Made by a program: the position numbers and the translations under genes
Notes under the pieces: generated by a model
The model's input: the letters and a program-made list of their open reading frames with translations, nothing else
Databases searched by the model: none
What the model was told of the DNA's origin: nothing
In this document: in pieces, positions 7,035-25,463 of the stretch
Layout of the letters: every line of letters starts with the position of its first letter
How positions within the stretch are numbered: position 1 is the stretch's first letter
Virus record (IMG/VR): IMGVR_UViG_3300036845_000136
Location: 1-56,056 of that record
Origin: a virus
Taxonomy: Duplodnaviria > Caudoviricetes
DNA: 56,056 bases
Reading direction: 5' to 3' (one strand)

Positions 7035-7243
7035 CAGACCAGCCTCCCTTCGGCGGCTTGCTTGGCGCGATAGTCGACCAGCGCTTGCTTGGCTTTGGCC
7101 TCGGTCATCTCCACCGCTGATCCAAGCTCGATCAGGTCGCCGTAGAGATCAGTGCCTTTCCACGCCACGGTCTCGCCGTTCTGCATCCTGATCGGATAGA
7201 CCACGGCGAACTTGACGTCGTTCCAGTTGGCCTTTGCCATCAC
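7034..7243 (-). CDS. hypothetical protein
   Basis: 69 aa, coupled to both neighbours. Confidence 0.55.
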   Translation of the reverse strand: MMAKANWNDVKFAVVYPIRMQNGETVAWKGTDLYGDLIELGSAVEMTEAKAKQALVDYRAKQAAEGRLV

Positions 7244-7458: not shown

Positions 7459-7467
7459 CGGTGGGGT

Positions 7468-7550
7468 TCCTCGGTGTGTGTGCAACACCAGGAATATAGG
7501 AAAAAACCGGGACGTCAGTCAAGCGATAAAACGGAAAAAATAGGGACATC
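7468..7550 (-). promoter_or_regulatory. sigma70-like promoter with two 18-bp boxes (copy 1)
   Basis: On minus strand TTGACT-N18-TATATT, then leader GTTGCACACACACCGAGGAA; boxes at 7499-7516 (variant) and 7533-7550 (GGAAAAAATAGGGACATC on +). Confidence 0.75.
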
Positions 7551-7563
7551 GTTCATTTTATCC

Positions 7564-7818
7564 CTATCGGCTTACGTTGCGGACTTTCCAGTCGATCGGC
7601 TTCGGAATGCGCTCGTGTGCCGTTGCCAGCCGGGTCAGCCATTTGACCACAAGCTTCGGCACCCCGACATCGCCTCTCGCCCAGCGGATCGGCAGGTTCT
7701 TGTCACAATCCAACTCCCGCGCGAGGCGATGCCGCGTCCAGCCGATCTGCTCGAGCACCTGATCGAGCCAGCCATCCGGTAGGTCGCTTACATGCAGTGG
7801 ACGTCCCGCTCTGGTCAT
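7564..7818 (-). CDS. XRE-like helix-turn-helix protein
   Basis: LEQIGWTRHRLARELDCDKNLPIRWARG..VP HTH pattern. Confidence 0.6.
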   Translation of the reverse strand: MTRAGRPLHVSDLPDGWLDQVLEQIGWTRHRLARELDCDKNLPIRWARGDVGVPKLVVKWLTRLATAHERIPKPIDWKVRNVSR

Positions 7819-8226
7819 TTACTTCGCCTCCAGCGCCAGCATCGCGTCGGGATCTGCGGCCGGATCAGTGGTGACCTCGCCAAGCCGATCGAACCATGAC
7901 TTATTGCGAAAGGCGCCGTGGCCCCAGCGCATCATGGTTGTCCACACCGACAGATAGGCGTCGTGGCGGTCGATCTCCTCCACAGAGTTTTTGAAGTTTG
8001 TATAGCTAATTCGCTCCACTTCATCGGCCATCGCACGCGACACGACACGGCGAGCAATGAACGCGCGATAGGCATAGTCTCGCTTCGGCGTATGCTCGAC
8101 CTTCACCGCGCCGAACACCCGCTCGATATCGCCCTCGCGTCGCGCGCGCACCAGCAAGTTGCGGGTCTTGCGCGTAGCGGTCGGTGCGACAATGCTCAGA
8201 AATGAGTCATTGCAAAACAACCACAT
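7819..8226 (-). CDS. conserved phage hypothetical protein
   Basis: ATG at 8226 overlaps the upstream TAA; MWLFCNDSFLSIV..LLVRAR..DYAYRA..YTNFKN. Confidence 0.7.
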   Translation of the reverse strand: MWLFCNDSFLSIVAPTATRKTRNLLVRARREGDIERVFGAVKVEHTPKRDYAYRAFIARRVVSRAMADEVERISYTNFKNSVEEIDRHDAYLSVWTTMMRWGHGAFRNKSWFDRLGEVTTDPAADPDAMLALEAK

Positions 8227-9089
8227 TAGTTTGTCCTCCGTTTGTAATTCTGCCGCCAAGAATCACTGCGTTTGGCATGACCTGCCTTGGTTGCGGCGCT
8301 GCGTCGTGCCTTAGCATCGGGCGTGTCGTAGTCAGGTTTTGTACGGCGTTTGATCCAGGCAACTTTTCGGCCGGCGCAGACTCTGATCTTCACCTCAGGT
8401 CTAGCGTGAGCGGCTTTAATACCCTCGCTACGACTGGTCCTGACTTCGGGGTCTGCCCAAGTGGCCGTCTGCCCAGCTATCTGTCTCGCCTTCACTTCAG
8501 GATCAGCCAGCGCCGTTTTGATTGCTTTCTTGACCTCTGGTCTATTGTGAGAAATCTTCTGCCTAGCACTGATCGAAGCTCTAACCTCAGGACTGGCTAA
8601 CGCGGCCTTTAACCCGGCGCTCTTTCGTTGAAATGCTCCAGGCTGCGCAAACGCAGCCTTCAGTAAAACGCTTTGCCGAGCTTTGAACGCAGGATCGGCG
8701 AACGCAACCTTCAGCGAAGCGCTCTTCTTCGCTCTATAAGCAGGATCGGCGACTAATCGAAGCACGAACTTAGACGTAAATCCGCGCCCGCCACCCAGTA
8801 GGTTCATGCACAACGCGTCGTCCATCACCATCTGGTCAGTGACCAACTCGGCCTCAGCCGCATAGGCGGCTGTCTCATTGGGATAGAACGCTACCACCTC
8901 GAAGGTCAGTCGCTCCGGCGCAATGTGATCCGCAATCCAATGCCCCGAACCGATGTAGCCGTCCGCTAGATCGCTGGTGGTGTGCTTCCCGCCATACCAC
9001 TCGAAGGTGTCGGGATCGTACGTCACGTAGGTGAAGTGCCACTGGCCGTTGGCATCTGGCGGCGGCGCGTCGTTCAGCATTATCCACAT
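8226..9089 (-). CDS. GIY-YIG-like homing endonuclease with repetitive basic C-terminal DNA-binding helices
   Basis: FTYVTY..WYGGKH..GYIGSG..AYAAEAEL..CMNL; repeats of A(F/L/W)ADPE/A.K/R.R.S; lower GC than flanks; ATG at 9089 overlaps the upstream TGA. Confidence 0.75.
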   Translation of the reverse strand: MWIMLNDAPPPDANGQWHFTYVTYDPDTFEWYGGKHTTSDLADGYIGSGHWIADHIAPERLTFEVVAFYPNETAAYAAEAELVTDQMVMDDALCMNLLGGGRGFTSKFVLRLVADPAYRAKKSASLKVAFADPAFKARQSVLLKAAFAQPGAFQRKSAGLKAALASPEVRASISARQKISHNRPEVKKAIKTALADPEVKARQIAGQTATWADPEVRTSRSEGIKAAHARPEVKIRVCAGRKVAWIKRRTKPDYDTPDAKARRSAATKAGHAKRSDSWRQNYKRRTN

Positions 9090-9307
9090 CAGACAGACTC
9101 CCCATCCGTAGCGCCGGGCGGTATCTGTGATAGTGCGATCGCATAGGCCATCCACCATGCGCTGCGACGCTCGAGCGTTGTCGCGACGCCGGTCTCGCCG
9201 ATCTCCCGTAAATGGTTCGCCATGCCCTGGCACTCGCGGGCTAGGTTTCTCGCCTTGACCGCCGACATCAGCGGCACCGGTGGCGGCAGGATAGGTTCAT
9301 CGCTCAT
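9089..9307 (-). CDS. hypothetical protein
   Basis: 72 aa, AAGGAG SD upstream. Confidence 0.55.
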   Translation of the reverse strand: MSDEPILPPPVPLMSAVKARNLARECQGMANHLREIGETGVATTLERRSAWWMAYAIALSQIPPGATDGESV

Positions 9308-10765: not shown

Positions 10766-10860
10766 TTCCTTTGTGTGTGTGCAACGGCGACAAGATAGGA
10801 AAAAATAGGGACATCAGTCAAGAGGAATATCGTGGCAGCAGAGGAAAAAATAGGGACATC
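10766..10860 (-). promoter_or_regulatory. sigma70-like promoter with two 18-bp boxes (copy 2) at the divergent junction
   Basis: On minus strand TTGACT-N18-TATCTT, then GTTGCACACACACAAAGGAA; exact boxes GGAAAAAATAGGGACATC at 10798-10815 and 10843-10860. Confidence 0.75.
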
Positions 10861-12130
10861 AGGCGCGTGGCCGGCAGATCACGTGGAACGCCGCCCGCTG
10901 GCAGAGTTGATCGCCTACGCCCGCAACGCCCGCACCCACAGCGAAGGTCAGGTCGCGCAGATCGCCAAATCGATCACCGAGTTCGGTTTCGCGACGCCGG
11001 TGCTGATCGACCCCGACGGGACCATCATCGCCGGCCACGGCCGCGTCCTCGCAGCAGGACGCCTCGGCCTCACCACAGTCCCCGTCATGGTCGCCGACGG
11101 TTGGAGCGCCGCGCAGATCAAAGCCTACCGCATCGCCGATAACCAGTTGGCGCTGAACGCCGGCTGGGACCTGTCGTTGCTGCGGGGCGAGTTCATGGAC
11201 CTGCAAGCCTCGGGCTTCGATCTGGAGTTCACCGGCTTCGCCGCCGCCGCGGCCGAGGCGATGATCGCCGACACCGGCGGCAGGACCGAGCCGGACGACG
11301 TGCCGGAGCCGCCAGAGGTCCCACGCACGCGCCCAGGCGACGTGTGGCAGCTTGGCCGGCATCGGCTGATCTGCGGTGATGCCACCGACCCCGAGGCCGT
11401 GCAGCGCGTCCTGGCGGGCGCCACGCCGCAGCTTCTCGTGACCGACCCGCCCTACGGCGTGGCCTATGATGGCAAGTGGCGCGACAAGGGACCGCGGCAG
11501 GCGCCCGGCAAGAGCAAAGTGGCCTACGTGCCGGGCGACGGGCAGAGCGACTGGTCAGCCGCCTGGGCACACTATCAGGGCGACGTCGCCTATATCTGGA
11601 GCAGCCCACTCAAGCTCGAGGTACCGCAACACCTGCTCGCCGCCGGCTTCGAGATCAGATCGCAGATCGTCTGGCGCAAGCATCAACCGATCTTCGGTCG
11701 CGGCCACTACCACTGGCAGCATGAATGTTGCTGGTACGCCGTGCGCAAGGGCAGCACAGGACACTGGCAGGGCGACCGCAAGCAGAGCACGGTGTGGGAC
11801 ATCACCACCGCCTCGGGCTTCCATGCCGGTGTGGTCGAGGCCGCCACCACGCACGGCACGCAGAAGCCGGTGGAGTGCATGCGCAAGCCGATGGAGAACA
11901 ACTCGGCCGTCGGCGATTGGGTGTATGATCCCTTCCTCGGATCGGGGACCAGCGTTATCGCCGCGCAGATGGCCGGCCGCTGCTGCGCCGCAATCGAGCT
12001 AAACCCGGCATATTGCGATCAGGCGATCACCCGCTGGCAGGAGTTCGTCGGCGCCGAGGCGGTCCTCGAGGCCACCGGCGAGAAGTTCGATGCCGTGCGC
12101 GTGGTGCCAGAACTGGCCTTGGGTAGGTGA
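10832..12130 (+). CDS. ParB-like N-terminal domain fused to an N4/N6 DNA methyltransferase
   Basis: YARNARTHS..IIAGHGRVLAA..IADN (ParB-like); DPPY, HGTQKPVE and DPFLGSGT (beta-class MTase). Confidence 0.9.
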   Translation: MAAEEKIGTSGAWPADHVERRPLAELIAYARNARTHSEGQVAQIAKSITEFGFATPVLIDPDGTIIAGHGRVLAAGRLGLTTVPVMVADGWSAAQIKAYRIADNQLALNAGWDLSLLRGEFMDLQASGFDLEFTGFAAAAAEAMIADTGGRTEPDDVPEPPEVPRTRPGDVWQLGRHRLICGDATDPEAVQRVLAGATPQLLVTDPPYGVAYDGKWRDKGPRQAPGKSKVAYVPGDGQSDWSAAWAHYQGDVAYIWSSPLKLEVPQHLLAAGFEIRSQIVWRKHQPIFGRGHYHWQHECCWYAVRKGSTGHWQGDRKQSTVWDITTASGFHAGVVEAATTHGTQKPVECMRKPMENNSAVGDWVYDPFLGSGTSVIAAQMAGRCCAAIELNPAYCDQAITRWQEFVGAEAVLEATGEKFDAVRVVPELALGR

Positions 12131-12132
12131 GT

Positions 12133-12574
12133 GATGGGAGCCGTAGCGAAGCGATCGGTTGCACGCCGCTTGCAGTTCTGCCGCGTGATCGCCTCCGGCG
12201 GCAGCGTGCGGACAGCGTGTCGCGTCATCGATATGGCCCGCCAAGCGGTCTACGCGTGGCGGGATGCTGATCCCATCTTCGCCAAGATGTGGGACGAAGC
12301 CTACGAAGATCACACCGACCTCTATGAGGAGGTCATCAGCAAGGCCGCCGCTCGTGGCAGCCTGTACGCTGCCCTTGCCGCGCTGCGCGCCCGCCGGCCG
12401 GGAGTGTGGGCAAAATCAGCCTCGTCCACTGAGGGCGACGTCGTCGAGGCTCTGGCGATCGCGCATGCGAGCAGCAACGCCGAGGCGCCCAAGGTATTCC
12501 TGATGCCGACCGATGCCGTGTCCGATAACGAACCCGATGAGCCACTGACAATCGAGGGCGAGCAGGCCGCATGA
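12133..12574 (+). CDS. terS: putative terminase small subunit
   Basis: N-terminal HTH (SVRTACRVIDMARQAVYAWR..D..FAKMWDEA); overlaps the terL start; exact start uncertain (GTG 12131 or ATG 12134). Confidence 0.6.
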
Positions 12575-14019
12575 TGCAGGTCGGCCGGCCGCGCGAAGGC
12601 GTCGACATCTATCCGCAAGCCGGGCCGCAGCAGACCTTCGGACGTACCGGGGCCGAGATCGCCGTGTTCGGCGGCAGTGCCGGGAGCGGCAAGACCTACG
12701 CCTTGTTGCTGGAGGCAATGCGCCATCCGCCGCACGTTACCGGCTTCGACGCGGTGATGTTCCGCCGCACCACGGTCGATATCCGCAAGCCCGGCGGTCT
12801 CTGGCCGGAATCACTCCGCGTCTTCCCCCACGCCGGCGGTGTGCCGATCAGCCACACGCTGGAATGGCGCTGGCCCGGCAAGGGCTCGATCAAGATGGCG
12901 CATCTCGAGCACGAGAACACAGTGTATGACTGGCATGGTAGTCAGGTTCCGTTGATTTGTTGGGATGAACTCCAAACTTTTACTAAGTCTCAGTTTTTCT
13001 ACATGCTGAGCCGCAATAGAAGTTCCACCGGCATACAGTCATGGATGCGCGCTACCTGCAACGCCGATGCGTCCTCATGGCTCGCTGAGTTCCTGTCCTG
13101 GTACTGGGACCCGCTGACTGGCTATCCGATTCCTGAACGCTCCGGCGTGATCCGCTATTTCACTCGCGGACAGGACGACAGCTTCCTGTGGTTCAACAGC
13201 AAGCGCGAAGCGGTGCGGGCCACCGGTCAGCCGCCCGAGACGGTCAAGAGTTTCACCTTCGTTGCCGCCAAGCTCGCCGACAACCCGGCACTGATGCGTT
13301 CAGACCCATCGTATTTGGGTAATTTGATGCTCCTGCCGCAGGTCGAGCGGGAACGACTGCTGAACGGCAACTGGAAGATCATTCCTTCCGCCGGGCTCTA
13401 CTTCAATCGCTCGTGGTGTCAGGTGATCGACATTGCGCCGATGTGCACCAAGATCGTGCGCGGCTGGGATCTGGCCTCGTCGGAGCCGAAAGACAGTTCC
13501 GATCCCGACTGGACGGCGTGCACCAAGATCGGTGTGATGCAGGACGGCCGCTGGATTGTGCTGCACCACGATGCCTTCCGTGGCAGCCCTGCCGAGGTCG
13601 AGCGCCGGGTGGTGAACTACTCTGCGATGGATGGCTACGATTGCATCGTCAGCCTGCCACAGGACCCTGGACAGGCCGGCAAATACCAAGTGGCGGCAAT
13701 GACCAGGGCGCTCGCCGGCTATCGCGTGGAGAGTTCACCGGAGAGTGGCGACAAGGTGACGCGGTTCGGACCGTTCAGCGCGCAGGCCGAGGTCGGCAAC
13801 GTGCTGGTCCTACGCGGCCAGTGGAACGAACGGTTCGTGTCGCAGCTTGAGAACTTTCCCGAGGGCGCGCACGACGACGATGCCGACAGCGTCAGCCGCG
13901 CCTATAACGCGATCGCGCAGAATCCGCCGATGCGCTTCGATCCGGATGAATTGCGCAAGCTCGGCATCCACATGCCGGGCGATATGACGGGGATGCTGCT
14001 GCCGCCAATGCGTCGCTGA
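12571..14019 (+). CDS. terL: terminase large subunit
   Basis: Walker A GGSAGSGKT, Walker B ICWDE, ATCN coupling motif, nuclease motifs GWDLA and HDDDAD. Confidence 0.95.
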   Translation: MMQVGRPREGVDIYPQAGPQQTFGRTGAEIAVFGGSAGSGKTYALLLEAMRHPPHVTGFDAVMFRRTTVDIRKPGGLWPESLRVFPHAGGVPISHTLEWRWPGKGSIKMAHLEHENTVYDWHGSQVPLICWDELQTFTKSQFFYMLSRNRSSTGIQSWMRATCNADASSWLAEFLSWYWDPLTGYPIPERSGVIRYFTRGQDDSFLWFNSKREAVRATGQPPETVKSFTFVAAKLADNPALMRSDPSYLGNLMLLPQVERERLLNGNWKIIPSAGLYFNRSWCQVIDIAPMCTKIVRGWDLASSEPKDSSDPDWTACTKIGVMQDGRWIVLHHDAFRGSPAEVERRVVNYSAMDGYDCIVSLPQDPGQAGKYQVAAMTRALAGYRVESSPESGDKVTRFGPFSAQAEVGNVLVLRGQWNERFVSQLENFPEGAHDDDADSVSRAYNAIAQNPPMRFDPDELRKLGIHMPGDMTGMLLPPMRR

Positions 14020-14030: not shown

Positions 14031-17000
14031 ATGTCGCTGCTGACCGCTCTCGCCGGCTTCGCCGGGCTCCTGGCGCGCGACGCGGCGCCTGAGCCGCCAC
14101 CGCCTCCACCGCCTGCCCCGCCGCAGATCGACGCCCAGGCGCTCTACAACGCGCTGCTGAGCACCGGCATGGTCGGCCAGCAGACCACGCCGTTCCAACT
14201 CTACTCGACCCGCCCCGTGGACGCTGGTGACATGGCGCGCATCTTCGCGCCGGCCAAGCCGATGCGTGGCGTCGTGCCTGATGGCGTCATCCCGATGGCG
14301 ATGGACGACCTCAACAACCCCATGTCGCTCTACGGTGGCTATCAGGGCATCACCGAGGGCATGGCGTGGCTCGGCTATCCCTATCTGGCCGAGCTGGCGC
14401 AGCGCACCGAATACCGGCGCATGTCAGAGACCATCGCCAAGGAAATGACGCGACGGTGGTTCAAGCTGATCGCGACCGGCGATGACGACAAGACCGACAA
14501 GATCACCGCGCTCGAAGCCTGTATGCGCGAGCATAAGCTGCAAGAGAAATTCGCGCTGCTCGCCCTGCTCGACGGCTTCTTCGGCCGCGCGCACCTCTAC
14601 ATCGATACCGGTGTCGGCGATGATCTGGATCAGATGAAGTTACCGCTGCTGATCGATCCGAGGGTGATCGGCAAGAACGGGCTAAAGGCACTGCGGGTCA
14701 TCGAGCCGATGTGGTGCTACGCTAACCGCTACAACGCCAACGATCCGCTGCGCAGCGACTTCTACCTGCCGCAGTCGTGGTATGTGATGGGCAAGGAAAT
14801 CCATCGCACCCGCATCCTGCCGTTCATCTCGCGCGAAATGCCCGACATGCTGAAGCCGGCATACAGCTTCGGCGGCCTTTCGCTGAGCCAGATGGCCAAG
14901 CCCTACGTCGACAACTGGCTGCGCACTCGCCAATCGGTGTCCGATCTGGTGCACAGCTTCTCGACGCCCGTGCTGATGACCAACATGGGCAGCGTCATGA
15001 ATGCCGGCGCCAGTCAGGCACTGCAAATGCGTGCCGCGCTGTTCAACTACCTACGCGACAACAACAATATGATGGTGGTCGATAAGACCACCGAGGACTT
15101 CAAGAACGTCGCGGCACCGCTCGGCTCGCTCGATCATCTGCAAGCGCAGAGCCAGGAGCACATATCGTCGGCAGTCGGGATACCCCTGGTGGTGCTGACC
15201 GGCATTTCGCCGTCAGGGCTTAATTCAAGCAGCGAATTTGAACTCCAGGTTTGGGCGCAGTGGATACACGCCAACCAGACCAGCTTCTTCGATGCGAATC
15301 TGAAGCTGATCTTGGACGTGATGCAGCTCGACCAGTTCGGCGAAATTGACCCCGACATCTCGCACGCGTGGGAGCCCCTCGAGGAGCTATCGGAGGCGGA
15401 GAAGGCGACCGCCGACAAGACCAAGGCGGACACCGACGTTGCCTACATCAACGCCGGCGTGTTGTCCCCCGACGAGGTGCGACAGAACCTGTCCGGCGAG
15501 GCGGAGAGCCCCTATCCCGGCCTCGACCTGGAGGGCCCCGCGCCACCGCCGCCGCAGCAGGAGCAGGACCCGCTCGCTGGCGCCCCTGGCGGCGATCCAG
15601 AAGGCGGCGGCGCACCTCCCGGCCCGGGTGGCCCTGGCGGTCCTCCCGGCACCGCAGGCGGCCCCGCAGGCGGCCGGCCGAACCCGATCAAGCCCACACC
15701 GCCGCGGGAGGTCGAGGCCGGTGGCTCGCCCGCCGCGACCAAGCCGAATGCCAGCCGTGATGAGGGTGGCAGCCGCGAGGTCGAGCACACCGCGATCAAG
15801 ATCGGCGAGAACGACAACGCCCAGGTGCACCTGAAGCCGCACGATGAACTGCACATCAAGATGGCGGCCGACGGCAGCCTGATCCTGTCAGGGGCTCGGC
15901 GTGACGCCCCTTTCGGCCAGGACGCTGAGTTCGAGGAGAGCAACGTCAAGCGGGACCAGAGCGGCAAGTTCGCCAAGAGCCGCACTTACAGCAAGACCAA
16001 CCCGCCGCAATCGAGCCATCTGCATGACGTCGAGTTCAAGTCATGGGACGCGCCAAAGGATAGTGCTGGGTGGAAGAAAGAAGCCGAGACCACACCGCAT
16101 TTCGAAGAGCCCGAGATGCCAGCCACGGGCGGCAAGAAACAGGGCGCCGGCGTGATCGTCCAGGAGCCCGACGGCCGGGTGTGGGTGATCCATCCGACCA
16201 ACCAATACGGCGGCTACTCCGGCACTTTCCCCAAGGGCGGCGTCGATAAGGGCGACAGCCTCCATGCCACCGCGATCAAGGAAGCCTACGAGGAGTCTGG
16301 CCTGCATGTGCAGTTGACCGGCTATGCCGGCGACGCCAATCGAGGCACATCGGTCGCCCGCTACTACTACGCCAAGCGGATCGGCGGTACGCCGGCAGAT
16401 CACGGCTGGGAGTCGGAAGGCGTCACGCTCTCGCCCCCCGATGAACTGCATCATCACCTGAACACGCCGCTCGATCGCCGCATGGCGGTCGCGATGATCC
16501 CTGGCGCGCACAAGGAAAGCCCGATCGACACCGCCAAGATGGAGAAGACCGGCGGCAAGCTGGGTAGCAATCCGGGCGGCAAATACAAGGACAGCGACGG
16601 CAAGGAATACTACGTCAAGGACAGCAAATCAGACAGCCACGCCAAGAACGAGATACTGGCATCGCGGCTGTATGACGCGGCCGGGGCACCGGCGCTGCAT
16701 GTCATGCCGGCGACCACACCAGACGGAAAGCTCGGCACCGCCACCGAGTGGCAGAAGACCGAGAAGATCAATCCGAAGAGCGAGGCCGATCGCACCGCAG
16801 CGCAGAAACATTTCGCGGCCCATGCGTGGCTAGCGAACTGGGATGCACCCGGCCTGACGCATGACAATCAGGCGCGGATCGACGGCAAGATGACGACGCT
16901 CGATAGCGGTGGCGCGCTGCTGTATCGCGCGCAGGGCGGCGAAAAGGGCGACAAGTTCGGCGACGACGTCGGCGAATGGGACACGCTGCGCAGCCCGAGC

Positions 17001-19433
17001 AACAAGCAGGCGCATGACCTGTTCGGCAGCATGACGCCCGCACAGTTGCAGGAATCGGCCTCGCGCGTGGTGCGCATCCCGTCCTCGCATATCCGCAACG
17101 CGGTGAACCGCCTCGGCCCCGGCAGCAAGGAAGAGCGCGCGGCCCTGGCAGAGCGGCTGATCAAGCGGCGCAACGACATCGCGCAGCGTGCCGGCGGCGG
17201 TCTCCAGGCGGCCGACAGCGCCCTCGCCTGGGCGTTCGACGCGATGATCGGCGAGTGGGAAGAGGAAGCTCACCCGCGTGATGAGGGCGGCAAGTTCACC
17301 GCCGGCAGCGGCGCCGGGGAGAAGGCCGAGGCGCCAGCGCCACCGCCGCACCAGTTGCACGTCAAGGTGCCCGGCAACAAGATCAAGTCGCTCGCCGACT
17401 CGCTGCCGTTGTCGGCCGAGAAAGATCAGATCACCGAGGTCGCGGGTCAGATCAAAGACATCGCCGGCCAGTACAAGCACAGTGCGATTTCCACCTATGC
17501 CAATTCAGTCCTGGCACACCTGGAAAGCCAGCACGGGCTGAGCAGCGGCAACCTCGGCAAGGCCAAGAAGATGCCGACGGTGAAGGGCGAGAAGGCAGCG
17601 CCAGAGCCCGCAGCCGAGCCGAACCCGCTGGAAGGGTTCAAGCTGAATGAAGCCGAGCCCGCGTCAAAGCAACCCGACCACATCCCAGATCCCAATCCGA
17701 ACTCGCCGACTCAGTTGACCATCCATCAGGTCGGCACGGGTGAGAACACCGTCGAGAAGAAGATCGGCCTGATCACTGACATTGCCTCCGGACAAAGCGA
17801 TAAGGACCAGCAATATGCTTTAGCGTGGCTCTATCACCTGGAGCAGCTTCCGAAAGAGGAGGAGGAGCCGAGCGCGACCCACGGTCAGATCGATGACGTC
17901 GTCGCCAGCAACGATCCGCTCGATCAGAAGATCAAGGCCATCATCGATCTCGGTCTGACGGGCTCGCAACAAGATGCTGATTACGCCGATGAGCAGTTGG
18001 CGAACCTCAAGAAGTGGAACGCCACCGAATACGCCGAGATGGAGAAGGCTGCCAAGTCCCAGTCCTCCCCGGACCCCGGCAAGGAGATGGAGAACATCGG
18101 CTTTGCCGCGATGGAGGCCGCCAAGCTCGACCCGGTGGCACTGAAAGCGGCGATCGCCGATATCGAGGCGATGCCGTCCGCCAATGCCGAGGTGGACAAG
18201 TTTAAGGCCGGATGGCTGACGACGCTGCAACAGACCTGGACCGCCAAGAATCAGTCGCCGCCCGCCGCGCCCAAGATGCTCGACCCTGAAGAACAAATGC
18301 ACGCGGTCGCCGAAAGCGCGATGCCGCACGAGCAGAAGATCGCGCTGCTAGAGAAGGTTCTGGACAGCAAGACCGTCAGCAAGGAGCACAAGCAGATCGC
18401 GGAGACGCTGATCAAGGTGCTCGATAAGAAGCAGACCGCAGCCGCACCACCGCCCGCGCCGAAGCCGGTCCCGCCGCCGATCATGGAGAGCAGCGCGACC
18501 CAGACCTCTATGCACGAGATCGCCACCGGGACGGAAACCGACGCGCAGAAGGTCGCTTATCTCAAGGCCAGCACGAAGCTACAGGACCAGCTTGCCAAGA
18601 GCCCGACTGGCACCACGGCGCAGTACTATAACCAGCTTATGGAGGCGCTCGGCGGCGAGCCGTTGCCAGGGGTAGTGGCGCCGCAACCGAAGCCCCCACC
18701 GCCTCCACCGAAGCCCAGCGCCGCCCAGAAGGCCGCTGCCGAGGCACCCAAGACCGCCAAGCACGGCTCGCTGACCGCCCCGGCCAATGCCCAGGTGACC
18801 CAGGCCCGCAAGGGCGCGGCACTGAGCCATGCGCTGAAGCAAGAGGCCGACGCGGTCAGCCCAGCCAGCACCGACACCGCGGCCGCGCGTGAGGCGGTCC
18901 CGTCACTGCGGCCGGACTTCTGGGCCGAAGTCGGCAACAAGCACGATAATGAGGCCGTCGAATCCTACGGCGGCGGCGGCTACAGCAAGATCAACGGCGT
19001 GCTGCGCGGCAACAGTCCGATCACGGAAGACGCGCTGAAAAAGATCGACAGCATGGATGGTCTGATGAACGAGCCAGGGACCAGAACCGTCGGCGACAAG
19101 CCGGTCCGGCTGATCCGTGGCGAGGACATGGAGCCGGAGCAGATCAAGAAGATCAAGGATAACCTGGAGAAGGGCATCGGCACGGTGGCCTACCAGCGCA
19201 TGGGATACACCAGTGCCTCGATTGGCGAGAAGCCCGGCTACAAAGCGAGCGCCAACACCTACTGGCAGTTCACCGCCATGCCGGGTGCCAGGATGCTCGG
19301 TATTGCTGCCAGCCCGGCGCACGGCATCGGCCACGGCGAGCGCGAGGTGGTGCTGCCGAATGGCATCACGGTCGAGGTCTATGAGATGTATCACGACGGA
19401 AAACGCCACATAATCAAGGCGCTATACCGCTGA
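14031..19433 (+). CDS. DUF1073-type portal protein fused to Nudix hydrolase, HipA/PI3K-like kinase, helical repeats and ADP-ribosyltransferase
   Basis: Directly after terL; portal motifs GYPYLAELAQR.EY, IHRTRI, GIPLVVLTGISPSGLN in aa ~90-495; Nudix box GGVDKGDSLHATAIKEAYEESGL; kinase motifs GSNPGG, YYVK, NE, WLANWD..DN, LDSG; ART motifs Y..IN..LR, LIRG, YTSAS, ERE. Confidence 0.88.
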   Translation: MSLLTALAGFAGLLARDAAPEPPPPPPPAPPQIDAQALYNALLSTGMVGQQTTPFQLYSTRPVDAGDMARIFAPAKPMRGVVPDGVIPMAMDDLNNPMSLYGGYQGITEGMAWLGYPYLAELAQRTEYRRMSETIAKEMTRRWFKLIATGDDDKTDKITALEACMREHKLQEKFALLALLDGFFGRAHLYIDTGVGDDLDQMKLPLLIDPRVIGKNGLKALRVIEPMWCYANRYNANDPLRSDFYLPQSWYVMGKEIHRTRILPFISREMPDMLKPAYSFGGLSLSQMAKPYVDNWLRTRQSVSDLVHSFSTPVLMTNMGSVMNAGASQALQMRAALFNYLRDNNNMMVVDKTTEDFKNVAAPLGSLDHLQAQSQEHISSAVGIPLVVLTGISPSGLNSSSEFELQVWAQWIHANQTSFFDANLKLILDVMQLDQFGEIDPDISHAWEPLEELSEAEKATADKTKADTDVAYINAGVLSPDEVRQNLSGEAESPYPGLDLEGPAPPPPQQEQDPLAGAPGGDPEGGGAPPGPGGPGGPPGTAGGPAGGRPNPIKPTPPREVEAGGSPAATKPNASRDEGGSREVEHTAIKIGENDNAQVHLKPHDELHIKMAADGSLILSGARRDAPFGQDAEFEESNVKRDQSGKFAKSRTYSKTNPPQSSHLHDVEFKSWDAPKDSAGWKKEAETTPHFEEPEMPATGGKKQGAGVIVQEPDGRVWVIHPTNQYGGYSGTFPKGGVDKGDSLHATAIKEAYEESGLHVQLTGYAGDANRGTSVARYYYAKRIGGTPADHGWESEGVTLSPPDELHHHLNTPLDRRMAVAMIPGAHKESPIDTAKMEKTGGKLGSNPGGKYKDSDGKEYYVKDSKSDSHAKNEILASRLYDAAGAPALHVMPATTPDGKLGTATEWQKTEKINPKSEADRTAAQKHFAAHAWLANWDAPGLTHDNQARIDGKMTTLDSGGALLYRAQGGEKGDKFGDDVGEWDTLRSPSNKQAHDLFGSMTPAQLQESASRVVRIPSSHIRNAVNRLGPGSKEERAALAERLIKRRNDIAQRAGGGLQAADSALAWAFDAMIGEWEEEAHPRDEGGKFTAGSGAGEKAEAPAPPPHQLHVKVPGNKIKSLADSLPLSAEKDQITEVAGQIKDIAGQYKHSAISTYANSVLAHLESQHGLSSGNLGKAKKMPTVKGEKAAPEPAAEPNPLEGFKLNEAEPASKQPDHIPDPNPNSPTQLTIHQVGTGENTVEKKIGLITDIASGQSDKDQQYALAWLYHLEQLPKEEEEPSATHGQIDDVVASNDPLDQKIKAIIDLGLTGSQQDADYADEQLANLKKWNATEYAEMEKAAKSQSSPDPGKEMENIGFAAMEAAKLDPVALKAAIADIEAMPSANAEVDKFKAGWLTTLQQTWTAKNQSPPAAPKMLDPEEQMHAVAESAMPHEQKIALLEKVLDSKTVSKEHKQIAETLIKVLDKKQTAAAPPPAPKPVPPPIMESSATQTSMHEIATGTETDAQKVAYLKASTKLQDQLAKSPTGTTAQYYNQLMEALGGEPLPGVVAPQPKPPPPPPKPSAAQKAAAEAPKTAKHGSLTAPANAQVTQARKGAALSHALKQEADAVSPASTDTAAAREAVPSLRPDFWAEVGNKHDNEAVESYGGGGYSKINGVLRGNSPITEDALKKIDSMDGLMNEPGTRTVGDKPVRLIRGEDMEPEQIKKIKDNLEKGIGTVAYQRMGYTSASIGEKPGYKASANTYWQFTAMPGARMLGIAASPAHGIGHGEREVVLPNGITVEVYEMYHDGKRHIIKALYR

Positions 19434-19494
19434 GGTTGTATCATCGTGCAAATTGCATCCGATGCGCCTATATGTCCGGCATAGGAGCAAACTC

Positions 19495-19698
19495 ATGGCA
19501 ATGACACCGGAAGAGCAGGCCGCCTGGGACGACGAGCGAGCGAAGCCCGACGGCCTGATGTTTGACGGCGACGGCAAAGTGATCTTCGACGCAGGGAATA
19601 CAGGCTTCAAGACGAAGGCCGATGTCGAGGCCCATCAGGCCGAGTTGGCGGAGAAGCTCGCCGAGTATCGCGCCAACAAGGCGAAGGCCGCCGAGTAA
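19495..19698 (+). CDS. small charged protein, candidate partner or immunity protein of the ART domain
   Basis: AGGAG SD at 19483; 67 aa; immediately after the ART stop; function inferred from position only. Confidence 0.55.
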   Translation: MAMTPEEQAAWDDERAKPDGLMFDGDGKVIFDAGNTGFKTKADVEAHQAELAEKLAEYRANKAKAAE

Positions 19699-19843
19699 GA
19701 CCTAGACGCTGCCGCCCAGGTCTCCCTGGACGGCAAACGCCTACCGGGACATGATGCGGACGTGGACTTTCACCACGATCCGCACCAGTATCCGCGGTAG
19801 GAGCTTGTGCGACTGCATCGCATTGCACTCCTAAGAAATAAGC

Positions 19844-19885
19844 GAGCCGTGACGGCGCTTTGAACACCGTCACGGCTCTGACCAC
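19844..19885 (+). promoter_or_regulatory. leader hairpin plus TGACCAC (copy A)
   Basis: Perfect 12-bp stem GAGCCGTGACGG/CCGTCACGGCTC followed by TGACCAC, upstream of an HNH gene. Confidence 0.7.
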
Positions 19886-19910
19886 CGGCTCTTTGTAGAG
19901 GAAGAACCAG

Positions 19911-20423
19911 ATGGCTTATCGACTTATGCCAGACGCGGCATATCTGCGCGAATGCTTCAATTATGACCCAGAGACAGGCGCCTTGCGGTGGCTAATCCGG
20001 CCTGTGTCGCACTTCGAGAGTGAATATATAGCTGCGCGCATAAACACTCGTTATACCGGACAGCCGATCACCTCGACTGCCAAGGGCTATTTACGGGTGG
20101 CGGTGCAGGGGAAACGCTATCAGGTGCATCGCATCATCTGGAAGCTGATGACTGGCGACGAGCCGCCTGTGGTAATCGACCACATTGACAGGAACCGCAC
20201 AAACAACCGCTGGGGCAACTTGCGACCTGCGACCCTCAGGGAAAACCAGATGAACCGCGCACGTGTCCAAGGGGCGCGGGTGGGCGTATACTTTCGAAGG
20301 GGGAAGCCGTCGCCATGGGTCGCCACCATCCTGGTTGGCTGTTACTCGACAGCCGCTGAGGCTTCAGCAGCAAGGGCATTGGCGGTAGACTGTCTGCGAG
20401 CCGCCTCCCTTTGGAGGGACTAA
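19911..20423 (+). CDS. HNH homing endonuclease with degenerate AP2-like tail
   Basis: FNYDPETGAL, HRIIW, IDHIDRNRTNNRWGNLR..N. Confidence 0.85.
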   Translation: MAYRLMPDAAYLRECFNYDPETGALRWLIRPVSHFESEYIAARINTRYTGQPITSTAKGYLRVAVQGKRYQVHRIIWKLMTGDEPPVVIDHIDRNRTNNRWGNLRPATLRENQMNRARVQGARVGVYFRRGKPSPWVATILVGCYSTAAEASAARALAVDCLRAASLWRD

Positions 20424-20468: not shown

Positions 20469-21299
20469 ATGCCGCCACCCGAGGGCATCAACTACATCGG
20501 CCGGGGCAGGGACAGGGTGCTGCCACCGGTCCACCCCAACGCCGGCATCGGCGTGGTCTACCGCACCCGCCTGCAACGCGCCGTCGCCGCGATGAACGCC
20601 AGCCTCGATTACTGGCTGTCCGCCCGCTGGGGCGAGGACAACCGAAGCGCCAACCGCATCATCGCCACCATGAAGGAACTCGGTCGGCGCTGGCAGTCCA
20701 ACTTCGACGAACTCGCCCCCGACGTCGCCGGCCAGTTCGGTGCCCGCTCGGTGCAATACACTACCAACCGGATGGAACAGCTTCTCGACGACGCCGGCTG
20801 GTCCGTCGAGTTCAAGGTCAGCCCGGCGATCAATGTCATCATGCGCTCGGCCGTGACGGAGAACGTCGGGCTGATCCGCTCGATCGCCAGCCAGCACCTC
20901 CAGAAGGTCGAGGGGATCGTGATGCGCGGCGTGCAGGCCGGCAACGACCTGAAGACCATGACCAAGGCGCTGCATGAAGAGTTCGACGTGCCGAAGAAAC
21001 GTGCCGCTTTCATCGCGCTGGATCAAACTAAAAAGCTGAACTCGGTCATCACCAAGGCCCGACAGGATCAGGCCGGAATCAAGCGCGCCGTTTGGATGCA
21101 CGCGAATATTACGACCCCGGGACATTTTCGGCCGGAGCATCTGGCGTTCTCTCGCGGCACGCACGCCGACGGCCCGAGCGGCAAGGGGCCGGTCTACGAG
21201 GTGGCGCAGGGGGCGTATCTTGAGGGCAAGTGGACGTACCCCGGCTTCGAGATCAATTGCCGATGCAGCAGTCGTCCGGTGATTGAGGGCTTTGAATAA
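20469..21299 (+). CDS. phage head morphogenesis protein (MuF / SPP1 gp7 family), short form without toxin extension
   Basis: RAAFIALDQTKK, WMH..RPEH, PGFEINCRC. Confidence 0.9.
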   Translation: MPPPEGINYIGRGRDRVLPPVHPNAGIGVVYRTRLQRAVAAMNASLDYWLSARWGEDNRSANRIIATMKELGRRWQSNFDELAPDVAGQFGARSVQYTTNRMEQLLDDAGWSVEFKVSPAINVIMRSAVTENVGLIRSIASQHLQKVEGIVMRGVQAGNDLKTMTKALHEEFDVPKKRAAFIALDQTKKLNSVITKARQDQAGIKRAVWMHANITTPGHFRPEHLAFSRGTHADGPSGKGPVYEVAQGAYLEGKWTYPGFEINCRCSSRPVIEGFE

Positions 21300-21416
21300 A
21301 TGTTCGACCTGAACGCGCTTGCAATCTGCTGTCCCTCTGTGTTCGGCACCATCCCAAACAAATTACCGGCGCAGACCTGTTGCAGCAGTTCGCCTATCTC
21401 AAGGCCGCAGCGCCAC

Positions 21417-21563
21417 ATGACACTGAACCCGAGCGGCATTGTGATCGACACGGAGACCGGCGAGGTGACGATTCCCGAGGGTCTGGCGTTAACAGATGCA
21501 GCGAAAGCCTTCTGGGCGGCTGTGCAGCACGTCTCCGGCTTTCGTCAGCCAGGGTTCTGGTGA
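21417..21563 (+). CDS. hypothetical protein
   Basis: C-terminal part of track ORF 21300-21563 looks coding; start uncertain. Confidence 0.4.
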   Translation: MTLNPSGIVIDTETGEVTIPEGLALTDAAKAFWAAVQHVSGFRQPGFW

Positions 21564-21760
21564 TCAAACAGGAGGACGTAATGTCAGACAAACCAAGTCC
21601 AAATCCCAATCCGCAGCCAACGCAGACGCCACAGGACCCGAAGCCGCCGGGGCAGAGCGATCCGAACCAGCCGCAGCAACCAACTGACCCACCACAGCAG
21701 CCGCAGCGAGAAGCCGCGCCGTTGCTCGATCGTGGCGTGCTGCGCCGAGGCTAAACCCGA

Positions 21761-21946: not shown

Positions 21947-22122
21947 TGCCGAGCGAGGAACACGACGACGGCTTGCCTTGGGGCCACATAACGGATGACG
22001 GCGTTTGGCACGAGTTGCCAAAGACACCGCTGGTGCTCGCCAATCTTGGTCCGCCACCATTCAAGATCGAACTGCCCTGGGGCGAGACGCGCGAGGTCGT
22101 GCATCGCCCATCGCTGATCTGA
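21946..22122 (+). CDS. hypothetical protein (58 aa)
   Basis: ATG overlaps the upstream TGA; GAGGGG SD. Confidence 0.45.
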   Translation: MPSEEHDDGLPWGHITDDGVWHELPKTPLVLANLGPPPFKIELPWGETREVVHRPSLI

Positions 22123-22271
22123 TCGCCGGGAGGTTCAGGTTCCCGGAGATGCCTGCCACGGGCGACGCGTGGCGTTGTGGTCTTATTGCTTTTCCTTCCT
22201 TGGGTGGCGCGCGTCGGCCGCAACAGCCAGACTGTACGGGCGCGCGCCGTTCCAAAATGGGGGATGTAGCG

Positions 22272-22478
22272 ATGACAGAGCAACGCAAGCTGCCGGGCCG
22301 CGCCGGGTATCCGCTGCTATCCAAAGTCGCGGTCGGTCTGGTCGAGGGCGTGGTCATCGCGCGCAGTTTCACTGATCCGATGCGCTACGACGTGCGCCAC
22401 GCTGAAGGCGTTCTGCGCGATCAGACCGACGTGCGGCTGATCGAGCGCTACAGCGGTCCGCCAATTCAGCGCGTGTGA
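22272..22478 (+). CDS. hypothetical protein
   Basis: MTEQRKLPG... within track ORF 22005-22478, GGGGA upstream. Confidence 0.45.
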   Translation: MTEQRKLPGRAGYPLLSKVAVGLVEGVVIARSFTDPMRYDVRHAEGVLRDQTDVRLIERYSGPPIQRV

Positions 22479-22786: not shown

Positions 22787-22963
22787 ATGTCACCATTGCT
22801 GCTCGTGCTGATCATCCTGCTGGTCGTGGTGCTGTTCGGAGGCGGCTACGGATATCGCTATGGCGGATGGCACGGGTCGCCCTACTACGGTCCCGGCTTC
22901 GGGCTGGTCGGCCTGATCGTGCTGATCCTGATCATCCTGCTGTTGTTCGGCTATCTCCGCTAG
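22787..22963 (+). CDS. DUF3309-like small membrane protein (58 aa, not in ORF track)
   Basis: Two strongly hydrophobic helices around a Gly/Tyr loop (LLVLIILLVVVLFGGGYGY...GLVGLIVLILIILLLFG); GGAG SD. Confidence 0.7.
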   Translation: MSPLLLVLIILLVVVLFGGGYGYRYGGWHGSPYYGPGFGLVGLIVLILIILLLFGYLR

Positions 22964-22970
22964 CCCGCCT

Positions 22971-23378
22971 CTATCGATCGCGACGCTTCTTGACTGGCGT
23001 CTTGGGCTTCTTGGACACCGACGCCTTCTTGGTTTTCTTTGTCGGCTTGGGCGCCGCTTCAGCGAAGACCTTCGCCAGATCATATAGCTCCTTCCAGTCA
23101 TTCTGCATGGCGGCATAATACGAAGCTGTCGCGTTGAGTTTTGTGATGAACGATTGAACGCTGGCATCTACCGACAGTATCGCTGACTCCAGCTTAGATA
23201 GATGCGCGTGCAGCACGGCTTGCTGCGATCCTACAACTCCTTGCTGGGCTTCTGTCTGCGTCATCCGCGCTTGCAGTATGGCGACCACCTCCATCCAGAA
23301 ATGCGACCGGATCGATGAGGCCCGCTGTTCGAGTCTGTCGAGCGTGCTGAGCGTCATGTCGTCTGGGTAATCGTTCAT
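22971..23378 (-). CDS. antisense-oriented coiled-coil protein with Lys-rich tail
   Basis: 135 aa, AAGGAAAGGAAG upstream, fills the intergenic gap exactly. Confidence 0.5.
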   Translation of the reverse strand: MNDYPDDMTLSTLDRLEQRASSIRSHFWMEVVAILQARMTQTEAQQGVVGSQQAVLHAHLSKLESAILSVDASVQSFITKLNATASYYAAMQNDWKELYDLAKVFAEAAPKPTKKTKKASVSKKPKTPVKKRRDR

Positions 23379-23410: not shown

Positions 23411-24871
23411 ATGCCATTCGATACGCTTTGGCTGGCGCTGGACAAGTCCGTGCGCCGTTACGATGAGGACGGCCGTCTGCACGTCGCAGTCAGCCACCTG
23501 ACAAAAGCAGCGGTCAACCCTTATAGGGGCTCCGAGATACCCGGATGGCAAGAACTCGGGCTTGATCCGGATCGTATCTACAACCTGCTCCGCGATCCGG
23601 GCGAACTCGAGAAAGCTGTTCCCACCTTCAACAACATCCAGCTTCTCGATCAGCACATCCCGGTCACGGCCGCCGATGCGCAGCAACCGCGCGTGGTCGG
23701 ATCGACCGGAACCAACGCCACGTGGAACCCGCCGTACATCGACAATAGCTTGGTTTTCTGGACCGACGCCGCCAAGGCGATGATCGAGACCGGAGCGCAA
23801 CGCGAACTGAGCGCGGCCTATCGCTACGACCCGGTGATGACGCCCGGCACCTATCTCGGGAAATCTTACGATGGGGTGATGAAAAACATCAGAGCGAACC
23901 ACGTCGCTCTGGTCGAGGCCGGGCGCGCCGGCAGCGATGTCGTGGTGATGGATAGCAAATTAGAGGAGATGCCGATGCCGACGCTGGCTCTGTCACGGCG
24001 CGCCACCTACACGGCTGGCTCGCTGGCAGCTTACATCAAGCCGCTCCTGGCGAAAGACCAGAAGCTGCCTGATCTGCCCGCATTGCTGGCGGGTCTGACC
24101 GCGAAGAACTGGGACAAGCAGAAGCCAGTCATCGCCGCGAAGATCACCGACCTGCTCAAGGGCAAGCTCGCCACCGATGCGGAGATACACATCCACGAAC
24201 ACATGGATGGCGCGGGCGCCGAGGCCCCTGGTGATGACACGCCGCTGGCCGTAGAGGGCGCCGCCTCAGAGGGCAGCGAGGTCGATCCCGCAGAAGGCGC
24301 CGACCCCGACGCTGGCGCTGGCGATGATGATCTCGCCAACAAGGTGCAGCAGTTGCTGCAAGGCAAGATCGACGACAACGACCTCGCCATCATCCTGCAA
24401 GCTATCGCTGCGACGAAAAAGCCCGCCGAGGAAGATCCCGCAGCGGCAGCGGCGGCGGCCGGCCCGCCGAACGGCGAGGCCACCGACAACGCAGCAGATC
24501 TCCCCAAACCAGGATTGGCGAAAGGCCCAGCCATGGATGCGAAAATGGTCGACGCGCGTATCAAGAAGGCGATCGCCGAGACCCGCGAGAGCGAGCGCAG
24601 GGTCCGCGACGCCGAGAAGTTCGTCTTCAAATACGTGGGCAACGTGGTCGCTATGGACAGCGCCGAGGCTGTCTACAAGTTCGCCCTAGAAGCGATGGGC
24701 GAACAGAACATCGCCGACCTGCATCCGTCGGCCTATCGCGCGGTGCTGTCACGCATTCCGGTGCCGGGCAGCGAGCAAGCGCGGCCATCGCATCTCGCGA
24801 TGGATGCATCAGGCAACAAGTCATACCTGGAACGATTTCCTAATGCCAATCGCTTGCAGGCTAGGCACTGA
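23411..24871 (+). CDS. DUF2213 head maturation protease / scaffold
   Basis: SVRRYDEDGRLHV, VNPYRGSEIP, RELSAAY.Y, NHVALV..GRAG; acidic scaffold-like C-terminal half; GAGG SD. Confidence 0.88.
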   Translation: MPFDTLWLALDKSVRRYDEDGRLHVAVSHLTKAAVNPYRGSEIPGWQELGLDPDRIYNLLRDPGELEKAVPTFNNIQLLDQHIPVTAADAQQPRVVGSTGTNATWNPPYIDNSLVFWTDAAKAMIETGAQRELSAAYRYDPVMTPGTYLGKSYDGVMKNIRANHVALVEAGRAGSDVVVMDSKLEEMPMPTLALSRRATYTAGSLAAYIKPLLAKDQKLPDLPALLAGLTAKNWDKQKPVIAAKITDLLKGKLATDAEIHIHEHMDGAGAEAPGDDTPLAVEGAASEGSEVDPAEGADPDAGAGDDDLANKVQQLLQGKIDDNDLAIILQAIAATKKPAEEDPAAAAAAAGPPNGEATDNAADLPKPGLAKGPAMDAKMVDARIKKAIAETRESERRVRDAEKFVFKYVGNVVAMDSAEAVYKFALEAMGEQNIADLHPSAYRAVLSRIPVPGSEQARPSHLAMDASGNKSYLERFPNANRLQARH

Positions 24872-24885: not shown

Positions 24886-25395
24886 ATGCCATTCCAGACC
24901 TCTGTTTCAGTTACGCAAGCGCCTGCCGTGGAGGGCGACTTCGCTTCGGAAAATCCGCGTTGGGCCGTGCCCTCGGTCGAGGGTGGCTTCAAAGCCGGTG
25001 CTGGCGGTGTGACGGTCGCGCGCTTCGCCTGGGCTGATGTCGCGACCAACACGCTGTTGCTGAACGCAGGCAGCGGCGCTCCGACCGGCTTCGTGCATCG
25101 CAACATGATGGGGCTGAACTTCAACTACTTCAGCAGCCCCGACTCAACGACGTTCGTCATCCCGCAGGGCTTCGGCTGTGGCGAGATATTCAGCGGCGGT
25201 GACTTCTGGGTGCGCAACACCGGCGCGGGCGCGGCAGCAGTCGGTATGAAAGCGTTCGCCAGCCTGACCACTGGTCAGGTGCAGTTCGCTGCGGCTGGCG
25301 CGACCGTCTCTGGCTATGTCGAGACCAAGTGGTGGTGCGAAGCACCCTGTCTCGCTGGCGAATTGACGAAGATGTCCAGCCAGCCGCTGGGCTGA
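24886..25395 (+). CDS. capsid decoration / cement protein
   Basis: Between protease and capsid; PAVEGDFAS.NP, GFVHR, GDFWV motifs typical of this head module. Confidence 0.7.
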   Translation: MPFQTSVSVTQAPAVEGDFASENPRWAVPSVEGGFKAGAGGVTVARFAWADVATNTLLLNAGSGAPTGFVHRNMMGLNFNYFSSPDSTTFVIPQGFGCGEIFSGGDFWVRNTGAGAAAVGMKAFASLTTGQVQFAAAGATVSGYVETKWWCEAPCLAGELTKMSSQPLG

Positions 25396-25463
25396 TCCAA
25401 CCCCTCAAACCACGAATATCCCCGAGCCGTCCAGCAACCCCTTGGGGCCGAGACAGGAGAACT

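Follow-up and report, generated by a model that had tools for sequence, protein, structure and literature searches.

Phage T4 packages Alt, an ADP-ribosyltransferase (ART), in its head and injects it. Alt is a free internal protein rather than a portal fusion; its own sequence directs it to the head, and the T4 prohead protease processes it. Portals are dodecamers, and the C-terminal end of their subunits points into the head. Fusions of enzymes to head proteins were described by Iyer et al. 2017, who defined the polyvalent proteins and reported PBECR, 2H and InPase domains fused to the portal or to MuF (PMC5512222). Subsequently, Iyer et al. 2022 described a NudE-like Nudix domain fused to MuF, to the portal and to a capsid-processing serine peptidase (PMC9503650). 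ARTs fused to the portal have already been reported in these two papers, both of which predict packaging in the head and injection. A related arrangement is that of the MuF polymorphic toxins of temperate phages, in which a head-assembly protein serves as the N-terminal anchor and the C-terminal domain, which is toxic or enzymatic, varies (Jamet et al. 2017, PMC5576092).

Here we describe an open reading frame (ORF) of 1800 amino acids (aa) at the portal position of the viral contig IMGVR_UViG_3300036845_000136 (Duplodnaviria; Caudoviricetes). The contig is a complete, linear IMG/VR record of 56,056 bp with a CheckV completeness of 69%, and its whole length is referred to as the window. The ORF encodes a portal domain followed by a cargo composed of a Nudix domain, a predicted protein-kinase-like domain and an ART, and it is an instance of the published theme of effectors fused to portal, MuF or peptidase. 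It differs from the published cases in its four-module make-up, in the presence of an Alt/VIP2-class ART in a multi-effector protein, in a kinase-like domain for which no family model or description was found, and in a series of helical repeats and a motif found at the module boundaries. A first-pass annotation made from the letters of the window had implied that such a protein is new. This was overstated, because effector-portal fusions were already in the two papers of Iyer and co-workers; what stands is that no earlier account of the kinase-like domain or of the motif was found in the literature searched. We regard it as probable, with considerable room for doubt, that the ORF is the genuine portal gene of a soil myovirus that has not been cultured, and that its C-terminal polyvalent cargo is freed, is injected and acts first on the new host.

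The polyvalent proteins share with the window protein the presence of several effector domains in one polypeptide and a location beside the terminase and portal genes. At least two effector-type domains in a polypeptide of a phage or conjugative element characterize this class, and the window protein has the Nudix, kinase-like and ART domains. Unlike in the polyvalent proteins, the hub domains MPTase, LPDs, ArdC-N and methylase-helicase were not detected by Pfam in the window ORF. The resemblance to T4 Alt lies in an ART of the R-S-E class and in the predicted carriage in the head and action at the start of infection, but the window ART is fused to the portal, and the similarity is weak and restricted to the domain level. 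As in the MuF toxins, a head-assembly protein at the N-terminus anchors a variable C-terminal part; in contrast to them, the anchor is the portal, there are four modules rather than one, and no immunity gene was recognised.

Domain composition of the portal-cargo protein

The coordinates of all features are given in Table 1. The core of the portal domain matched PF06381 (Phage_portal_3, formerly DUF1073) over aa 117-469 (nt 14379-15437), with an E-value of 6.7e-79 and 265.6 bits against a Pfam cut-off of 33.8, and the match extended over profile positions 2-355 of 357. Sequence matches in the PDB were the dodecameric portals of Pa193 (9b41, E 2e-35) and E217 (8fvh, E 1e-32), and the similarity to these 12-chain structures suggests that the window portal would form a dodecamer at a capsid vertex. 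These PB1-like portals (gp19, 765 aa) belong to the same portal family and also have a C-terminal extension beyond the barrel, which is not visible in the virion map; theirs is of about 240 aa, whereas that of the window ORF is of about 1300 aa and holds three enzymes. The Pro/Gly-rich linker that follows the portal gave no family match in Pfam scans of the whole protein and of its segments, and neither did aa 601-700, in the unassigned spacer that follows, match any Pfam family.

The Nudix domain was detected with PF00293 at 43.1 bits (E 5e-11) in the whole protein and at 48.2 bits (E 1.4e-12) when the segment was scanned alone, the cut-off being 21.1. Additionally, it matched the PHROG nudix family (E 2e-4) and the Ap4A hydrolase 3i7u in the PDB (E 0.0018). 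The consensus of the Nudix box is GX5EX7REUXEEXGU, and the sequence at aa 736-758 has the form G-x5-D-x7-K-E-A-x-E-E-x-G-L, in which the core K-E-x2-E-E is kept.

The next domain was assigned from its predicted structure. An AlphaFold2 model of aa 830-1054, built with 18 sequences, had a predicted local distance difference test score (pLDDT) of 86.4 and a predicted template modelling score (pTM) of 0.81. When this model was compared with the PDB using Foldseek, all 33 matches at E<=1e-3 were kinases, with CtkA of H. pylori at the top (E 1.7e-5). VIA-align also ranked CtkA first (Z 15.4, 208 residues aligned, 3.2 A), ahead of Bacillus CotH (13.1), HipT (11.4), HipA (11.0), LepB (10.8) and actin-fragmin kinase (9.7), with generic protein kinases lower in the list (Z 7.8-8). 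The residues G845, N847, G849 and G850 of the Gly loop (845-850), as well as K863, E874, D938, D945/N946, D958 and the columns of a DxGG motif, are invariant or at least 90% conserved in the 18 sequences, and they are the putative counterparts of the ATP-binding and catalytic positions of kinases (Gly loop, Lys, Glu, catalytic Asp/Asn and metal-binding Asp). This pattern of a conserved loop, Lys, Glu, Asp and Asn appears to match that of CtkA, CotH, HipA and HipT, the best structural matches, but the identity in the structural alignments with these kinases is 12-15%, and the window segment has no match to this group at the profile level. As modelled, the segment is a protein-kinase-like fold that is closest to the CtkA/CotH/HipA branch. 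The assignment rests on fold and conservation, because sequence searches gave no kinase match.

The kinase-like domain is widespread: 4101 cluster representatives were found at E<=1e-3, of which 934 reached E<=1e-30, mostly in long multidomain proteins; in one Atlas cluster, PI3_PI4_kinase was annotated on 16% of the members. Pfam holds a model named 'Kinase-PolyVal'. No Pfam model was found for the present domain, nor a published description, although the supplementary lists of Iyer et al. 2017 may hold one and may include the architecture of the window protein as well. The kinase described by Iyer and co-workers is devoid of the C-terminal subdomain and occurs mainly in prophages of the Verrucomicrobia-Chlamydia group and of Bacteroidetes, whereas the window domain retains helices at its C-terminal end and occurs in Proteobacteria, Actinomycetota and other groups. 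No phage fusion was found in the literature on CtkA and its kinase fold; CtkA, too, is encoded on a mobile element, in association with an integrative and conjugative element and a type IV secretion system.

The C-terminal ART was detected by PF03496 when aa 1560-1800 were scanned alone (27.3 bits against a cut-off of 23.4), and it also matched an Alt-like PHROG family (E 1.3e-5). An AlphaFold2 model of aa 1100-1800 (pLDDT 78) was used for Foldseek, in which the predicted ART gave 58 matches at E<=1e-3; these were led by the C3 exoenzyme (C3bot1, E 2.2e-7 and a template modelling (TM) score, on the target, of 0.61), VIP2, iota and CDTa, and C2-I was also among them. The catalytic residues R1696, S1728/S1730 and E1770/E1772 are in place, and the R, S and E are invariant or at least 90% conserved among the 18 sequences. 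The E-x-E form goes with arginine-specific enzymes. Only two short ART homologs were found (P0191 and P0192).

The domain calls of the first-pass annotation were recovered very near to where it had placed them: the portal at about 14300-15520, also a portal in PHROG; a Pro/Gly linker past it, confirmed by composition; the Nudix domain at about 16140-16500; a HipA/PI3K-like kinase fold at about 16530-17190, at the level of the predicted fold; and a VIP2/Alt-type ART at about 18950-19433. Moreover, the motifs that it had named in the kinase-like domain and in the ART all fall on invariant or at least 90% conserved columns of the alignments.

Integrity of the portal-cargo fusion

The ORF starts 12 nt past the stop of the large terminase gene (14019) and, as had been noted in the first reading, forms a single uninterrupted frame, free of stops, between that gene and the HNH, MuF, protease and capsid genes. 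Chance is no concern for a frame that stays open over 5.4 kb and has four independent matches to known domains. We considered whether separate portal and cargo genes could have been joined by chimeric assembly or by a sequencing error, and we judge this to be very improbable. Among public sequencing runs one was found to hold the stretch, a soil metagenome that is possibly the source sample; no RNA run was among the holders listed. The Logan contigs of this sole run break exactly at the border between portal and linker, and none bridges positions 15489-15518, at the end of the portal domain, which speaks for an artefact. The two contigs that abut there overlap by 30 nt, which equals k-1, and have depths of 14.7 and 12.4, while the competing branch is a 53-nt contig composed of an Illumina-adapter-like 23-mer and the same 30-mer. 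Because of the k-1 overlap, the similar depth and the adapter-like loose end, we read the break as a graph artefact; it looks like adapter carry-over that split the assembly graph.

An artefact is also contradicted by related proteins. P0002 (1853 aa), which comes from another data source and an 81.7-kb contig, aligns continuously with aa 1-1254 of the window protein at 53% identity, through the junction, tether and spacer, and the alignment resumes over the C-terminal ART; both the N-terminal 30 aa and the portal/cargo junction are conserved. In addition, the portal and the kinase-like domain are in the same ORF in 18 of the 83 kinase-bearing ORFs of 80 viral loci, these being the best 80 of 585 IMG/VR stretches, and a portal lies N-terminal to the kinase-like domain in 30 of 192 related proteins, a set that was fetched by similarity to the cargo and is hence biased. 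Judged from these alignments, the fusion is not an assembly artefact, and the assembly join in the reads that the first-pass annotation had named as a possible objection is not indicated.

Related proteins and their head anchors

The portal-cargo ORF had matches in 747 GenBank phage records, none of them at 80% query coverage or more; the best covered 24%, of the portal only. Patterns taken from the whole protein alone were too specific: they found no relative in viral contigs, and in genome contigs they gave 27 pattern matches, none of which was a relative. A search based on an alignment of the kinase-like domain (A1) was used instead, and 585 of the 599 candidate IMG/VR stretches that it returned encode this domain.

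In the 80 viral loci, the Nudix domain is fused to the kinase-like domain in 31 and encoded in a nearby ORF in 14 more, and the ART is fused to it in 40 and nearby in 12 more. The order portal-Nudix-kinase-ART was observed in three ORFs, and the order portal-kinase-Nudix-ART in another three. At least 43 of the loci have a head gene in the same ORF or close by, a lower bound, as the profiles were seeded from the window phage only. The anchors were the portal (18), DUF2213 (9) and MuF (1). Among the related proteins, P0004, P0005, P0006, P0008 and P0010 begin with a DUF2213 domain (PF09979), to which a closely related cargo (41-53% identity) is attached; this cargo is Nudix-kinase-ART in the first four, and no ART was detected in P0010. 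The head protease of the window itself belongs to the same DUF2213 family. That the same cargo is attached to three prohead-internal proteins is the best argument of the present analysis for the view that its location in the head matters. The cargo of the window protein is probably carried inside the head.

A different explanation is that the enzymes act late in the producing cell and are then trimmed or degraded around head assembly, so that none of them reaches the next host; modification of host or phage proteins, or the clearing of nucleotides, might be their task, in the manner of T4 ModA/ModB. The gene is located in the late head module, and the enzymes would be made late anyway; moreover, no release or injection signal was identified. 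In the Pa193 virion, residues 529-765 of the gp19 portal (765 aa), that is, the last 237, have no density (PMC11456595), which is compatible with cleavage and loss of such an extension. We nevertheless find this explanation unlikely, since the use of three prohead-internal anchors is hard to explain otherwise and there is precedent in T4 Alt and in the MuF-fused effectors (PMC5512222).

Other combinations observed were portal-SET-kinase-ART in P0038 and Nudix-kinase-topoisomerase IB in P0007. In addition, phrog_30637 (1119 positions) matches both portal and protease, which suggests that portal-protease fusions exist. In two cultured phages, Morganella phage Mecenats66 and E. coli phage ECML-606-1, the kinase-like domain (41% identity) forms part of a giant protein, and a Nudix domain (about 50% identity) is encoded two genes downstream of it. 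These genomes are of 86-95 kb, the giant proteins (1238 aa in Mecenats66, 2253 aa in ECML-606-1) are annotated as 'hypothetical', and the kinase/Nudix regions (4012-8963 and 994-9103, respectively) lie upstream of the terminase and portal genes. As in the window, a ParB-methyltransferase is located upstream in Mecenats66. The paper on Mecenats66 makes no mention of ORF50, ORF52, NUDIX, mass spectrometry or a virion protein. Models with the kinase-like fold were also present in BFVD for the Gordonia phages Sixama and GodonK, for an 'ADP-ribosyltransferase' of Mycobacterium phage Onyinye, and for a protein of 1201 aa from an uncultured phage that is labelled 'HK97 portal'.

Of 184 candidate stretches in species genomes, 159 were relatives of the kinase-like domain, and these came from Alpha-, Beta- and Gammaproteobacteria, Actinomycetota, Chloroflexota and further groups; the best match (49%) was in a metagenome-assembled genome of Roseomonas. 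In the best 80 genome loci, a portal fusion was found in only one, and 18 ORFs were of the kinase-ART type. Rhodobacter capsulatus and its relatives (Rhodobacter and Fuscovulum genomes) have short kinase-like proteins of 422-583 aa (43-47% identity), and no head gene was detected within 8 kb of these genes with the window-seeded profiles.

Helical repeats and a motif at the module boundaries

Three features were absent from the first-pass annotation, namely the DUF2213-anchored cargo of related phages described above, a set of helical repeats and a boundary motif. Six predicted three-helix units occupy about 450 aa between the kinase-like domain and the ART, and the spacers between them are of low confidence in the AlphaFold2 model. 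The region (aa 1100-1560) had no Pfam match. A hidden Markov model of the repeat found the six units in the window protein, units in 13 of the 192 related proteins, and none in shuffled sequences.

The motif has the form of an aromatic residue, acidic residues, H-P-R, 2-12 residues and G-x-F, followed by a Gly/Ser run. Its strict form has one match in the six frames of the window, and a degenerate copy aligns with a fuller copy in P0002 (Table 1). In the related proteins we found 83 matches in 68 of the 192, as compared with 0-1 per shuffle in 20 shuffles. None of the 83 copies lies inside a mapped domain, and 22 start in the first 80 residues of the protein. No family model or published description of the motif was found, although the supplementary lists of Iyer et al. 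2017 may include one. Our guess is that it serves as a processing or packaging signal, or as a recombination joint for the swapping of modules.

The long flexible tether and the approximately 450 aa of repeats and spacers, which have no enzymatic signature, would also fit a cargo that remains covalently attached to the portal as long as the virion exists. Such a cargo may organise or retain the DNA end, or fill space, within the head, or it may thread down the tail with its C-terminus first while still attached, the enzymes being secondary passengers; the fact that no protease site was identified agrees with this. On the other hand, the catalytic residues of all three enzymes are conserved in the relatives, which argues for selection on catalysis, and twelve tethered chains of 1300 aa together with DNA presumably cannot all pass the tail tube. 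We give this explanation a poor chance.

Head-module context

The portal-cargo ORF is embedded in a head module with the order small terminase, large terminase, portal-cargo ORF, HNH, MuF, protease, minor head protein and major capsid protein, and a tail sheath, a tape measure and a baseplate wedge protein are encoded downstream of the head genes. From these three tail genes we conclude that the phage is a myovirus. The MuF-like protein is short and without cargo in PHROG and Pfam scans, as the first reading had stated. The minor head gene (24886-25395) is overlapped by the listed capsid ORF (25329-26522, GTG at 25329), in which the first 83 residues lie outside the capsid PHROG match, which starts at residue 84; the real capsid start is probably further downstream. 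Three HNH/homing-endonuclease-like genes were seen (19911-20423, 26572-27501 and, on the minus strand, 8226-9233), two of them within the head module, one between portal and MuF and the other past the capsid gene. The G+C content is even across the window (0.58-0.68). The AT skew is 0.29-0.30 in the cargo part (16001-20000), versus 0.13 in the portal part and 0.00-0.15 in most of the contig; the high value fits a composition rich in Lys, Glu, Ala and Gln, and a different origin might also account for it.

Table 1. Coordinates of the portal-cargo ORF, its domains and motifs, and neighbouring head genes in the window. aa positions refer to the portal-cargo protein.
Feature	Position (nt)	Strand	Position (aa)	Evidence and remarks
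Portal-cargo ORF (P0001)	14031..19433	+		ATG start; 1800 aa; stop-free
Portal domain	14292..15641	+	88-537	PHROG phrog_146, E 3e-107
Pro/Gly-rich flexible linker	15522..15710	+	~498-560	G22 P22 per 100 aa
Module-boundary motif, degenerate copy	15930..15971	+	634-647	before Nudix module
Nudix hydrolase domain	16137..16478	+	703-816	PF00293
Atypical protein-kinase-like domain (predicted)	16518..17192	+	830-1054	
Module-boundary motif, strict copy	17256..17297	+	1076-1089	just past kinase-like domain; Gly/Ser-rich stretch next
Six three-helix repeat units (predicted)	17403..18653	+	1125-1541	Pro/Ala/Glu-rich spacers; AlphaFold2 model
C-terminal R-S-ExE ART	18921..19394	+	1631-1788	PF03496
ParB-methyltransferase	10832-12130			upstream of small terminase
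Small terminase	12131-12574			PHROG phrog_4044, E 5e-13
Large terminase	12571..14019	+		PHROG phrog_979, E 4e-145
HNH endonuclease	19911-20423			HNH_3; between portal and MuF
MuF-like head-morphogenesis protein	20469..21299	+		276 aa; phrog_324, E 7e-60; PF04233, E 1e-8
DUF2213 head-maturation protease/scaffold	23411..24871	+		phrog_2229, E 2e-114; PF09979, E 1e-42

The neighbourhood also bears on whether the protein could be a phage-borne polymorphic toxin used in bacterial competition, with the ART as the toxic tip and an immunity protein encoded nearby. A toxin-type ART at the C-terminus of a head-protein anchor is what is seen in the MuF toxins (PMC5576092), and the kinase-ART ORFs mentioned above show that such proteins occur in cellular genomes too. 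We hold this to be improbable: the N-terminal anchor is the portal and not MuF, and no immunity gene was recognised among five small neighbouring ORFs (19453-19698, 21300-21563, 21380-21754, 22005-22478 and 22867-23118), which had no Pfam match, immunity proteins often being unannotated. Likewise, the contig is that of a myovirus, and no lysogeny genes were seen among the window genes scanned in this incomplete contig.

Proposed mode of action and significance

According to the delivery of a head-borne cargo that we favour, up to 12 copies of the cargo would be enclosed per virion, amounting to about 1.7 MDa, which we estimate to be a small fraction of the head volume. The first-pass proposal of up to 12 copies loaded for delivery agrees with the topology of the portal and with the published predictions for portal, MuF and peptidase fusions. 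The C-terminal extension of the related Pa193 portal, which gives no density, is also counted in its favour. The cargo would be freed in the prohead by a cut in the tether or at the boundary motifs, for which the DUF2213 maturation protease is the likeliest enzyme, or alternatively it would be threaded while still tethered, and it would leave with the DNA at infection. In the new host, the ART would modify proteins with NAD+, for which T4 Alt is the precedent, and the kinase would phosphorylate host proteins, a target suggested by its structural relatives, all of which except LepB are protein kinases. The Nudix domain would remove ADP-ribose/NAD-derived or capped nucleotides. The net effect would be host takeover or counter-defence.

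Several points weigh against this proposal, in addition to the break in the Logan contigs. Packaging in the virion, cleavage and injection are all steps that we infer, and since a portal remains in the virion, a release step must be assumed; the cleavage site was not identified, and the boundary motif as the cut signal is a guess. The contig is only about 69% complete, and its host was not identified. As to the enzymes, the Nudix box has D and K where the consensus has E and R, and the first of these two positions is variable in the relatives too. The kinase segment matched no Pfam or NCBIfam kinase family at E<=10, Flagellin_D3 (E 0.16) being the only match; a PDB profile search with alignment A1 returned four weak rows, none of them a kinase, and HipA_C was reached by only 4 of the 18 relatives, with a best E-value of 0.004. 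In the scan of the whole protein, PF03496 scored 20.6 bits, which is under the cut-off of 23.4.

A more specific version of the delivery proposal is speculative, and we would not lean on it. The Nudix domain and the CtkA/CotH-like kinase may be an as yet unnamed, conserved two-enzyme effector pair of tailed phages, with at least 4101 protein clusters, whose linkage is kept even when it is split into neighbouring genes, as in the Morganella and E. coli phages; the motif may be a cargo-freeing signal for the DUF2213 protease or the packaging machinery, used on portal, protease and MuF alike; and about 12 each of kinase, Nudix and ART may be injected against NAD+/nucleotide immunity.

Anchoring to the portal would fix both the number of cargo copies, at 12 per virion, and the place where they are found, and it makes the long-standing prediction of injected polyvalent proteins directly testable. 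Naming the kinase-like domain would annotate thousands of giant phage proteins now called 'hypothetical'. That it so regularly occurs together with Nudix and ART domains points to an attack, early in infection, on host NAD+/nucleotide signalling, RNA polymerase or translation, a reading that would be relevant to counter-defence by phages and to the selection of phages for therapy.

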